Below, in pieces: positions 1,984 through 32,650 of a stretch of DNA of 64,000 bases. The position numbers were made by a program, and so were the translations under genes. The notes under the pieces were generated by a model. It saw only the letters and a list, made by a program, of their open reading frames with translations. It made no database searches and was not told the origin of the DNA. This DNA comes from Eubacteriales bacterium. Lineage in GTDB: Bacteria; Bacillota; Clostridia; Oscillospirales; CAG-272. The stretch's first letter is position 1. The number at the start of each line of letters is the position of its first letter. Location of the stretch: positions 9,911 to 73,910 of the forward strand of contig JAZNFP010000059.1 of assembly GCA_045576095.1 (NCBI GenBank), in the 5' to 3' direction.

Positions 1984-2081
1984 AATAAACCTCCAAATGT
2001 GGTATGATACGGGAGAAGCAAATATTTTCTCCCTCCCACGGATGCGCGTTAGCGCCGGGAAAGCGAAAAATCAGACAGCAA

Positions 2082-2624
2082 TCAGTCGGTGACTCGAATA
2101 TCCTTCGAATCAACGATGATCGGAATGTCTCGCGTTTCGGTCGAGGCGAGAACCGTGACGGTCTTCTTATCGTCACTGATCTCACGGACTGTGCCGTGAT
2201 AGCCCTCGAACATACCCGAAACGATCGAAACCTTGTCGCCAATCGAGAACGCAACGCTCTCGGTACGCATCTCGATGTTGAAGGCCTCAACCTCCTCATC
2301 GGTCAGCGGGACAGGTCTTGATCCGGGACCCACAAATCCGGTAACACCCGTGATGTTGCGGATCACGTGCCAGCTCTCGTCGTTCATCGTCATCTTCACG
2401 AGAACGTAACAGGGAAACACCTTCGTTTCAACTTCCTTCTGCTCGCCCTTCTCGTTTGTAGTGACCGAAATTTCAACGGGGATCTTCACGTCATAGATCA
2501 GATGACCGAGGCCTCTGTTCTCGACGATCTTTTCAATGCTGGCCTTCACCTTGTTCTCGTAGCCCGAGAACGTGTGAGCTACATACCATCTGGGACCGAG
2601 ATTCATCTCATTGATGTCACTCAT
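2082..2624 (-). CDS. nusG: Transcription termination/antitermination factor NusG
   Basis: WYVAHTFSGYENKVKASIE... NGN domain and C-terminal KOW (GDKVSIVSGMFEGYHGTVREI). Conserved secE-nusG-rplK synteny. Confidence 0.95.
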   Translation of the reverse strand: MSDINEMNLGPRWYVAHTFSGYENKVKASIEKIVENRGLGHLIYDVKIPVEISVTTNEKGEQKEVETKVFPCYVLVKMTMNDESWHVIRNITGVTGFVGPGSRPVPLTDEEVEAFNIEMRTESVAFSIGDKVSIVSGMFEGYHGTVREISDDKKTVTVLASTETRDIPIIVDSKDIRVTD

Positions 2625-2636
2625 GATACACTCAAA

Positions 2637-2936
2637 TTAACCGATCAGACCGGCAATACCGCCGATCACCTCGGAGAAGATAAAATCAACGAAGCCGATT
2701 GCAACACCCATCGACACGACCATCGCGCAAACGAGAACGGTGCTCTTCTTGACGTCCTTGCCGGACATCCAGACGACCTTCTTCATTTCGCTGATATAAT
2801 CGCGCCAGACCTTCGCAATACGACGACCGATTCGAGCGAAAAAGCCGGGCTTCTTCTGAGAAGCGGACTTTTCCTTCTTTGCAGAAGCTGCAGACTTGGT
2901 TTCGGTGGTCCGCAGATCGTTATCGTGCTCAGCCAT
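2637..2936 (-). CDS. secE: Preprotein translocase subunit SecE
   Basis: Basic N-terminus, then the conserved ...SEMKKVVWMSGKDVKKSTVLV... and a single C-terminal TM helix. Located between rpmG and nusG. Confidence 0.85.
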   Translation of the reverse strand: MAEHDNDLRTTETKSAASAKKEKSASQKKPGFFARIGRRIAKVWRDYISEMKKVVWMSGKDVKKSTVLVCAMVVSMGVAIGFVDFIFSEVIGGIAGLIG

Positions 2937-31012: not shown

Positions 31013-31042
31013 TCAAAAATGAGTACCACCGGAGTGGTACTC
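31013..31042 (-). terminator. Intrinsic terminator after tRNA-Ser
   Basis: Minus strand GAGTACCAC-tccg-GTGGTACTC followed by ATTTTTGA. Confidence 0.8.
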
Positions 31043-31045
31043 AAA

Positions 31046-31137
31046 TGGCGGAGAGAGTGAGATTCGAACTCACGGAACGGTATTAGCGTTCACACGATTT
31101 CCAGTCGTGCGCCTTAGACCAGCTCAGCCATCTCTCC
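31046..31137 (-). tRNA. tRNA-Ser (anticodon GGA), CCA encoded
   Basis: Reverse complement GGAGAGATGGCTGAGCTGGTCTAAGGCGCACGACTGGAAATCGTGTGAACGCTAATACCGTTCCGTGAGTTCGAATCTCACTCTCTCCGCCA. It has a 7-bp acceptor stem, anticodon stem CACGA/TCGTG with loop CTGGAAA, a long variable arm and T-loop GTTCGAATC. Confidence 0.93.
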
Positions 31138-31149
31138 AGCGACTTTTGT

Positions 31150-31178
31150 ATTATAGCATACTTATTCAGAAAAATCAA
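31150..31178 (-). promoter_or_regulatory. Sigma-A-type promoter of tRNA-Ser
   Basis: Minus strand TTGATT (31173-31178), 17 nt, TGcTATAAT (-10 at 31150-31155), 12 nt before the mature 5' end. Confidence 0.7.
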
Positions 31179-31229
31179 TACCTTTTCCGAAATTTCGCCT
31201 ATTATTTTCTGAAAAGTAAGGGATAACGT

Positions 31230-31262
31230 GCGAGACCGTGCAAGCACGGTCTCGCAAAAAAA
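31230..31262 (-). terminator. Stem-loop immediately 3' of the Cys-rich gene (non-canonical: the U-tract precedes the stem)
   Basis: Minus strand: stop TAA, TTTTTTT, then GCGAGACCGTG-cttg-CACGGTCTCGC (11 bp). No U-tract follows the stem. Confidence 0.4.
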
Positions 31263-32168
31263 TTACTTTCCGTTTCCGCAACCGCATCTTCCGGCAAGGT
31301 TGCTCAAGCCGGTTGCATTTGCACTTGAGGTCGAAAGAAGGGCTCTCGCGTTGCCGTTGCCGTTGCCGTTCTGGGCACAGTTCGTTCCGGCAAACTCTCC
31401 CGTCGGAAACGCCATCGTTCGGAAAAGGCTGCAGGGATCGTCCTGCTCGGCCGTAACGCTCTCCTTATCCGGAACGCTGTAGTCGCTTGCACTGATCAAA
31501 AGCTGCGCGGGGCGCTTTAAGCGAATGACCGAGAAGATACCGAGGGAAACGTACAGACGGTTACCGCAGTCGGGATCAACGAGCGGCCCGATCAAGGAAG
31601 AGCAAACCGCCTCGGGAATCTCGTCACAGCGACAGAAGCAACAGCCGCACTGAAGATTTCTCTCGCAGATCTTCACCGAGAGCGCGATCGGATCAACAAC
31701 CTCGACAACGCCTACGGGGAGATTGGAGGCAGCCTCGGCGGGACTGAAGTCGCACAGCCCCGTATCGCTGCTGCTCGTAAAGATTTTGACACTTCCCTCG
31801 CCGCCGTACAGAACGGCACGCTTTTCAAGGACTGCGATTCCCGCAAAATCCTGACTTCTTCCGGTTGCAACGCACCCCTCAAAGGAAAGCTTGACGTAGT
31901 ATCTCGCCGTAAGCTGATAGAAGCCGCAGTTGAAGGGAATGGGATCAACGCTGATCTGTGTCCAAACAACCTCGGCGCTGCGAACTCTTACCGTGCAGGT
32001 ATTGTCAATAACCTCCTGACCAAGCGCTGTCAGATAGATTCTGACGTCCTCGTAGCAATCGCGATCGCGAGAGGAATCAAGGATACGGTAAGTATCAATG
32101 CAGACCGTCTCCCGTCCGCCAAGCGCACCGTTCCCCTGGGCACATCTGTTTTCTGCCATACAGAACAT
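31263..32168 (-). CDS. Cysteine-rich hypothetical protein (301 aa, 20 Cys)
   Basis: ORF with RBS TAGGAG. Features: CIDTYRILDSSRDRDC, CGCCFCRC cluster, NGNGNGN repeat, C-terminal GRCGCGNGK. No signal peptide or TM helix. I recognise no family. Confidence 0.65.
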   Translation of the reverse strand: MFCMAENRCAQGNGALGGRETVCIDTYRILDSSRDRDCYEDVRIYLTALGQEVIDNTCTVRVRSAEVVWTQISVDPIPFNCGFYQLTARYYVKLSFEGCVATGRSQDFAGIAVLEKRAVLYGGEGSVKIFTSSSDTGLCDFSPAEAASNLPVGVVEVVDPIALSVKICERNLQCGCCFCRCDEIPEAVCSSLIGPLVDPDCGNRLYVSLGIFSVIRLKRPAQLLISASDYSVPDKESVTAEQDDPCSLFRTMAFPTGEFAGTNCAQNGNGNGNARALLSTSSANATGLSNLAGRCGCGNGK

Positions 32169-32175
32169 CTCCTAT

Positions 32176-32211
32176 AACACAAAGTATCGAGGCTCCGCAG
32201 AACCTCGATAC
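32176..32211 (-). terminator. Intrinsic terminator after the mini P-loop gene
   Basis: Minus strand GTATCGAGG-ttctgcggag-CCTCGATAC followed by TTTGTGTT. Confidence 0.65.
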
Positions 32212-32242
32212 CATGATATGCACAGATATTTTTTTTGCTAAA

Positions 32243-32650
32243 TCAAACGAGAGAGCGCATCTCCTCGGAGCAATCCTCAATCGGTGCAGAAACCGTCATA
32301 ACGAAATTGAAGCCGTAGGTGTCCGAAAGCTTACGGACACGGGAAACGACCGATTCAACGCCCGCCATATCGTACTTACAAATCTTCAGTGCCGCATCTA
32401 CGAAAATATCGGTAATATCGTGATCGCTTGCAGCAAGACCGGCAATAAAACCGTAAAGTGCATCTGCGCTCTCGATGCCGAACGCCGTCGTATCGACAAG
32501 TCGAGCCTTGTATGTAACGTCAAAATTCAGGGTGTTTCCATACTCGACACAAATGACCGAGCCCTTCGTCGCTGCCGCTGCAGCATTGACCTGCTCAATC
32601 AGATTCTTGGTTTTTCCGGAGCCTCTTGCGCCGATGATTAACTTAACCAC
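32243..32650 (-). CDS. Minimal Walker-A (P-loop) protein, 135 aa
   Basis: GTG start at 32650, 7 nt after AGGAGG. (M)VKLIIGARGSGKTKNLIEQ... Walker A. A possible Walker B is DITDIFVDAA. The track ORF start at 32731 lacks an RBS. Confidence 0.6.
   Translation of the reverse strand: MVKLIIGARGSGKTKNLIEQVNAAAAATKGSVICVEYGNTLNFDVTYKARLVDTTAFGIESADALYGFIAGLAASDHDITDIFVDAALKICKYDMAGVESVVSRVRKLSDTYGFNFVMTVSAPIEDCSEEMRSLV

Follow-up and report, generated by a model that had tools for sequence, protein, structure and literature searches.

The window analysed here is a stretch of 64,000 nucleotides (nt) from an uncultured Eubacteriales bacterium (assembly GCA_045576095.1, contig JAZNFP010000059.1, positions 9,911 to 73,910). 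On its minus strand, at 31263..32159, it encodes a cysteine-rich protein that probably belongs, as a distant member, to the CsxA superfamily, a group of cysteine-rich proteins of the spore envelope. The gene, hereafter the csxA-like gene, most likely builds a layer of the spore envelope in an uncultured, small-genome Clostridia bacterium of the gut or rumen. A preliminary description of this DNA had proposed a coat or exosporium protein, and that interpretation is supported by homology to CsxA, by the near-restriction of the family to genomes encoding SpoIVA, by a mother-cell-type promoter and by the lack of any rival match to a non-spore family.

CsxA (299 amino acids, 25 Cys) was recovered from very-high-molecular-weight exosporium material of Clostridium sporogenes (PMC4942563). 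Recombinant CsxA self-assembles into hexagonal two-dimensional (2D) arrays that are the same as the basal layer of the native exosporium, and these arrays come apart only under harsh reducing conditions (PMC7333573). According to a preprint of September 2026, CsxA is essential for the exosporium, is modelled as an intertwined trimer and, from Foldseek comparison of AlphaFold 3 models, belongs to the SPOCS/DUF3794 fold together with CsxC, CdeC, CotE and SipL (10.64898/2026.09.03.749163). The same preprint divides this fold class into structural members (CsxA, CsxC, CdeC) and morphogenetic, Cys-poor members (SipL, CotE), and it makes no mention of Oscillospiraceae or Ruminococcaceae (10.64898/2026.09.03.749163).

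Homology to CsxA and features of the protein

Neither the protein nor 33 diverse relatives nor the family profile had a match in Pfam, NCBIfam or PDB sequences, and the Pfam search of the protein was empty at E values up to 10, PF12673 included. In the Pfam copy searched, CsxA itself has no match, and CsxC has a weak match to SipL only. The earlier label "family-less" holds with respect to these libraries, but not in the wider sense: 1053 homologues were found in a 90% cluster database, an exhaustive search of representatives yielded 891 clusters at 50% identity, and homology to CsxA is detectable. At least 578 species-level genomes carry a homologue. Identities of 50–93% are kept across hundreds of genomes, and the gene is therefore far more than a chance reading frame. 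All homologues are annotated as "hypothetical protein" and come from Clostridia, Oscillospiraceae or Eubacteriales metagenome-assembled genomes; the same annotation is carried by the members of the window's subfamily in cultured organisms, namely Thermoclostridium stercorarium (Cst_c03400), Petroclostridium sp. X23 (WP_282864712.1) and Monoglobus pectinilyticus (AUO18793.1). A clear match to a characterised non-spore family, which the preliminary description had named as a refuting result, was not found.

The relationship to CsxA was examined with an alignment of close relatives (A1), a profile of the wider family (A2) and an alignment of four CsxA-type sequences (A3). When searched over 400 genomes of the class Clostridia, A2 gave 170 strong matches (E < 1e-20) and 59 weak ones. 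In complete Clostridium-like genomes, the weak matches are proteins of ~260–280 amino acids starting MS(I/V)N..(F)xPRPG(L/I)VNKQGRLPDP, and the N-terminus of these Clostridium-type matches is that of CsxA, whose sequence was taken from the supplement of PMC4942563. With hhalign, A2 aligned to CsxA at a probability of 98.1% (E 7e-14, 222 columns, CsxA residues 23–261) and to A3 at 99.1% (E 1.3e-18), and these alignments, which span almost the whole protein, supersede the earlier statement that no family could be recognised. Identical residues occupy 19–22% of the aligned columns in these hhalign comparisons. A direct BLASTP comparison of the window protein with CsxA recovered the TLGxF...DPC block (E 4e-5, 63 residues at 32% identity), and the A3 profile searched against the window's genome had the Cys-rich gene as its sole match (E 4.5e-4). 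Divergent members of 215–384 amino acids are present in further families, and the superfamily is therefore broad.

The aligned regions include an N-terminal motif, VCI...(Y/F)D.C....C, which takes the form C(I/V)xxxK(V/I)(F/Y)DxCxxxxC in both the window protein and CsxA. Also common to the two proteins are a central Cys cluster (CGCCFCRC here, CGGGCNCGCTC in CsxA) and a C-terminal block, TLG(L/I)F(S/I)I(I/V)...QLL(I/V)P...DPCxxF...P..(F/Y)PP, which reads VSLGIFSVIRL...QLLI...DDPCSLF...FP in the window protein and ITLGLFIIIKC...QLMVP...HDPCKEF...LP..YPP in CsxA. These signature motifs are visible in A1, in A2 and in the Clostridium-type open reading frames (ORFs). In size and composition the window protein (298 amino acids, 19 Cys) resembles CsxA (UniProt G9F2G0; 299 amino acids, 25 Cys; PMC4942563), and both lack an export signal and have spore-forming Clostridia as hosts. 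They differ at both ends, since the window protein is without the leader FxPRPGxVNKQGxLPDP of CsxA and has a Gly/Asn-rich tail ending in CGC, whereas the tail of CsxA is acidic and has no CGC. The hosts also differ, with Clostridium sporogenes as well as C. botulinum of group I on one side and an uncultured Clostridia bacterium with a 1.47-Mb genome on the other.

The ORF listing bears out the preliminary description of an ORF of 301 amino acids with 20 Cys (6.6%) at 31263..32168, for which no strand had been given; it lies on the minus strand. Its end stands, with the stop codon at 31263–31265, but the true start is most likely M4, at 32159, giving a product of 298 amino acids with 19 Cys (6.4%), because all 27 close homologues in the alignment start at this residue (M-x-(E/D)) and because of the spacing of the Shine-Dalgarno sequence. 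A ribosome-binding site had also been reported before; the Shine-Dalgarno sequence, AGGAGA (32168..32173, minus strand, read from the sequence), overlaps the ATG at 32168 and lies 8 nt upstream of the ATG at 32159. The extra residues MFC that a start at 32168 would add are probably not translated. Kyte-Doolittle means over 19 residues peak at 1.62, and the mean of the first 25 residues is −0.56; these values fit a protein with neither a transmembrane helix nor a signal peptide, in agreement with the earlier reading.

All four motifs listed in the preliminary description were located: CIDTYRILDSSRDRDC at residues 23–38, CGCCFCRC, NGNGNGN and the C-terminal GRCGCGNGK. The CGCCFCRC cluster (31626..31649, minus strand; residues 171–178 in 298-residue numbering) aligns with the cluster of CsxA, is conserved among close relatives (A1) and varies in length and sequence among distant ones (A2). 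The C-terminal tail of ~46 residues (31266..31403, minus strand) is of low complexity, poorly conserved and variable across A1 and A2; it includes NGNGNGN and ends in the CGC motif, the first Cys of which (C297 in 301-residue numbering) is kept in at least 90% of the A1 and A2 sequences. In 298-residue numbering, the family-wide Cys positions are 20, 30, 35, 96, 136, the 171–178 cluster, 234, 243 and 292. Cys30 and Cys234 covary, being both present in 165 of 222 sequences, both absent in 35 and discordant in 22, a count in which phylogeny is a confounding factor. In the window's clade both residues are Ser (window ~32070–32072 and 31458–31460). This pattern hints that the two residues form a disulfide pair or a shared site that was lost together in the window's clade.

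The AlphaFold 2 (AF2) monomer model has a mean pLDDT of 70 and a pTM of 0.59, with 113 residues at or above 90, mostly within residues 30–220, and with pLDDT below 50 for residues 252–301; long beta-strands are predicted. A Foldseek search of this model against the PDB found no significant match and no solved fold (TM ~0.1), and its top rows, which are secretins, HA70 and astrovirus spikes, are uninformative; the hits included no SPOCS reference structure.

Comparison with other spore-layer proteins yielded no further homologues. The SPOCS/DUF3794 proteins (SipL, SpoVID and CotE; PF12673) and CsxC are mother-cell spore-envelope proteins, as is proposed for the window protein, and the beta-rich, SPOCS-like fold given to CsxA in the preprint has a possible counterpart in the long beta-strands of the AF2 model. 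However, no sequence signal connects them to the window protein, the hhalign probability being 0.1% between the family and a SipL-like (SPOCS) alignment of 24 sequences from 24 genomes and 0.05% between the family and CsxC, and SipL and CotE are poor in Cys. The CotY, CotZ and ExsY proteins of the Bacillus crust or exosporium and the C. difficile proteins CdeC and CdeM follow the same strategy, in which Cys-rich proteins made in the cytoplasm self-assemble into disulfide-locked layers (PMC7333573, PMC7677010), but they have no detectable homology to the window protein, which matches no Pfam family, including any of CotY/CotZ type. ExsY and CotY are described in the literature as analogous, not homologous, to CsxA.

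Occurrence in spore formers and a mother-cell-type promoter

The 400 genomes were also searched for SpoIVA (PF09547), and 399 of them were scored in both searches. Among the 170 genomes with a strong family match, 163 encode SpoIVA and 7 do not, compared with 144 and 85, respectively, among the 229 genomes without a strong match (odds ratio 13.7, Fisher p = 1.3e-16, not corrected for phylogeny). All seven SpoIVA-negative genomes with a strong match are fragmented assemblies of 50–190 contigs. With the weak, CsxA-type matches included, a member is found in 221 of 307 SpoIVA-positive genomes and in 8 of 92 SpoIVA-negative ones. The family is thus almost confined to SpoIVA-encoding genomes, which agrees with the spore-former restriction that the preliminary description had named as a check. 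A member of the superfamily occurs in 72% of the sampled SpoIVA-encoding genomes, across dozens of families of the Genome Taxonomy Database (GTDB).

Upstream of the csxA-like gene lies a putative −10 box of mother-cell (sigma-K/sigma-E-like) type, G-CATATCAT (32213..32221, minus strand); the window's copy of the full motif is GCATATCATGG (32211–32221). CATA-type −10 boxes are a mark of the mother-cell sigma factors, with CATAnnnTA for sigma-K and CATAcAnT for sigma-E in Bacillus subtilis. Across related loci, 76 of the 78 distinct upstream regions have CATAnnnT 30–130 nt before the ATG, compared with a rate of 10% in random windows from those loci, and the consensus runs (T)GTCA/TCAC, ~15 nt, then (G)CATAnnnT(A/G)nTA(T)CGAGG. 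The −35 region (TCA/CAC, ~15 nt upstream) gives no basis for choosing between sigma-E and sigma-K. Judged from these motifs, the data support the placement of the csxA-like gene behind a conserved mother-cell-type promoter.

Matches to the motif were also found elsewhere in the window's genome, upstream of dpaA (best match NF006162, E 4.5e-48), of a gene for an M14 peptidase (with MpaA as a weak and partial match in NCBIfam, E 6e-7) and of a gene for a ClpP-like protease; they lie on contigs C3 (minus strand, near its end), C48 and C69. In B. subtilis, the spoVF (dpaA) operon is sigma-K-dependent. The scan used crude ORF calls and three of its matches were examined, so it is supportive and does not define a regulon. 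In the window's lineage, the CATA motif with its flanks may serve to mark the mother-cell regulon.

The putative −10 box abuts the 5′ arm of a 13-bp GC-rich hairpin that is followed by a T-rich stretch (32183..32212, minus strand, from a terminator scan), which would most simply be the intrinsic terminator of the gene upstream, a P-loop NTPase gene described below. The arrangement, with the −10 box abutting or overlapping the 5′ arm of a terminator, is kept in most of 76 distinct loci (from L001–L086). In 83% of these loci the leader hairpin has a minimum free energy of −8 kcal/mol or stronger, and 42 of the 76 have a 5′ arm that starts immediately behind CATAnnnT. The leader stems covary (for example ATCGAGG/CCTCGAT, ATCGGAG/CTCCGAT and ACCGAGG/CCTCGGT), and a U-run often follows. 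The expected transcription start, ~7 nt past the −10 box, would lie within the hairpin's 5′ arm; on the simplest reading, transcripts from this promoter would therefore be without the 5′ arm and would escape termination.

Directly after the stop codon is a perfect 12-bp hairpin (31229..31256, minus strand; −22.7 kcal/mol, z = −5.3), preceded by U7 and with no U-run after it, which is probably an atypical terminator or a stabiliser of the 3′ end. Because the upstream hairpin and T-rich stretch divide the gene from its upstream neighbour and a strong hairpin follows its stop codon, the csxA-like gene appears to be monocistronic.

Neighbouring genes

The csxA-like gene, which is present in a single copy in the 1.47-Mb genome, has as neighbours genes for aspartate kinase, a tRNA and a P-loop ATPase, together with pgi and dacB. 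Sporulation genes, already remarked on in the preliminary description, are nearby both in the window and in related loci (dacB-like, pdaA-like, spoIIID and spoVT), and the window's genome also encodes a separate SipL-like protein. The dacB-pgi-ATPase neighbourhood differs from that of the csxA loci in Clostridium, where zapA, bcl and glycosyltransferase genes are found. Many Clostridium csxA loci adjoin collagen-like and glycosyltransferase genes (PMC7333573), a linkage that is not strictly defining. The sole collagen-like stretch in the window's genome, in a short ORF with (G-X-Y)11 at ~28996 on the plus strand of contig C6, is unlinked to the csxA-like gene; it is possible that this ORF encodes a BclA-like nap protein.

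Directly upstream, at 32243..32650 on the minus strand, is a gene for a minimal RecA/KaiC-like P-loop NTPase of 135 amino acids with the Walker A motif GARGSGKT. It belongs to no Pfam or NCBIfam family; its AF2 model (pLDDT 95) matches RecA, RadA and KaiC in Foldseek at TMq 0.62–0.74. The NTPase gene adjoins the csxA-like gene on the same strand in 65 of 87 target loci, and these copies encode 61 distinct proteins; of the 87 loci, 77 extend 600 nt or more in the upstream direction. Over the class, the NTPase family is present in 315 of the 400 genomes, including SpoIVA-negative ones (for example G001, G021, G023, G025, G026, G029 and G037). Most other lineages, such as those of G236, G259 and G183, show no linkage between it and the csxA-like gene, and at the Clostridium csxA loci it was not found in either of the two with inspected ORFs (L092 and L096). 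A dedicated pairing of this ATPase with the CsxA-like protein was considered and rejected, as the NTPase is near-universal, occurs in SpoIVA-negative genomes and is usually unlinked, the synteny being local. The protein is instead a near-universal, unnamed mini-ATPase of the class Clostridia.

On the downstream side, a tRNA gene (31049–31137, minus strand; Rfam RF00005, 55.5 bits) lies between the Cys-rich and aspartate kinase genes. At 89 nt it probably has a long variable arm. A promoter-like site, TTGATT-17-TATAAT (31150–31178), is just upstream of the tRNA gene and a terminator-like hairpin (31020–31043) is just downstream of it.

One of the Clostridium loci, in Clostridium saccharobutylicum (L090, genome G376), has an ORF for a Cys/Gly-rich protein of 198 amino acids (2066–2662, plus strand) adjoining a Clostridium-type csxA paralogue, and a second csxA-like copy (L096) is ~5 kb from the first. 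The three genes together suggest a small spore-surface gene cluster in this species.

Proposed role in the spore envelope and alternatives

By the role proposed here, the csxA-like gene would be transcribed in the mother cell late in sporulation from its sigma-K/sigma-E-type promoter, and the protein would be made in the mother-cell cytoplasm and not exported. Its beta-rich core, by analogy with CsxA, would self-assemble around the forespore into an ordered oligomeric layer, as CsxA trimers do in forming a hexagonal 2D lattice. Disulfides would then lock the layer, again as in CsxA, with the VCI...DC pair near the N-terminus, the CGCCFCRC cluster, the DPC motif and the terminal CGC as candidate participants, and the outcome would be a tough, semi-permeable coat or exosporium shell. 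Self-assembly, the geometry of the lattice, disulfide cross-linking and the spore layer occupied are all carried over from CsxA and would hold to the extent that the analogy does.

Several observations weigh against this role. Identity to CsxA is low and the full-length match is seen by profile methods only, so that functional equivalence is an extrapolation. Nobody has seen spores of the host, which is uncultured. The SPOCS/DUF3794 fold of CsxA is without sequence support here, and for its assignment the preprint is the only source; the confidence of the AF2 monomer model is itself moderate, and no solved structure matches it. The csxA-like gene is not adjoined by collagen-like or glycosyltransferase genes, unlike many csxA genes of Clostridium (PMC7333573). 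Finally, with Cys30 and Cys234 missing from the window's clade, the pattern of cross-linking may be different.

Some of these points would also suit a protein of the CsxA superfamily with a morphogenetic or scaffolding part in assembling the coat, in the manner of SipL and CotE, which would then not be the crystalline, disulfide-locked shell itself. The preprint's split of the fold class into structural and morphogenetic members allows for such a role, as do a genome of only 1.47 Mb with a single family member and the lack of bclA-like or glycosyltransferase genes close by. We nevertheless consider it unlikely, since the morphogenetic members are Cys-poor according to the preprint whereas the window protein is 6.4% Cys with conserved Cys positions, and since the genome already has a separate SipL-like protein. 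The Cys content could alternatively serve a metal- or Fe-S-binding protein, as the preliminary description had also considered, in which CGCCFCRC and the terminal CGC would supply the ligands of a metal-thiolate centre, for example in spore redox or metal storage. Dense vicinal cysteines and the retention of the first Cys of the terminal CGC across A1 and A2 would fit such a centre. However, the central cluster differs between family members in both length and sequence, which would be unusual for a catalytic metal site, and there is no invariant ligand motif; neither Pfam nor NCBIfam gave a match to an Fe-S or metal-binding family, leaving the proposal with no positive support; and the best-supported homologue is a structural lattice protein. 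Such a role is on these grounds improbable, though the Cys cluster may itself bind metal.

Least probable is an ATP-dependent assembly module in which the mini RecA-like ATPase encoded upstream would start lattice formation or act as its chaperone. Same-strand adjacency at three quarters of the target loci (65 of 87) speaks for it, and the neighbour is, from its predicted structure, confidently a RecA/KaiC-type NTPase core. The two genes are, however, separated by a probable terminator, and the broad occurrence of the NTPase, its usual lack of linkage elsewhere and its absence from the two inspected Clostridium csxA loci all stand against a joint function, so that the distribution largely refutes the proposal. 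A spore-envelope layer built by the CsxA-like protein remains the reading that we favour.

This assignment gives a name to a very large family whose members all carry the annotation "hypothetical protein". It will not surprise the field, given that a 2026 preprint (10.64898/2026.09.03.749163) already argues that related Cys-rich proteins build the spore envelopes of Clostridia. For the uncultured Clostridia of Oscillospiraceae type, the dominant group in metagenomes of gut and rumen, the family provides a candidate structural marker of the spore envelope, and the cultivable carriers T. stercorarium, Petroclostridium sp. X23 and M. pectinilyticus make the hypothesis directly testable. If the mechanism of CsxA transfers, it would explain how such Clostridia build resistant, transmissible spores, and self-assembling, disulfide-locked protein sheets would be on offer from many lineages.

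The breadth of the superfamily among SpoIVA-encoding genomes also raises a more speculative possibility, on balance doubtful, that a CsxA-type lattice protein, self-assembling and disulfide-locked, is an ancestral, near-universal building block of the outer endospore envelope across the class Clostridia and not a speciality of Clostridium sensu stricto. If this were true, even gut and rumen Clostridia with genomes of ~1.5 Mb that have never been seen to sporulate would enclose their spores in a crystalline CsxA-like shell, and clade-specific Cys clusters would tune the cross-linking or the pore chemistry of that shell.

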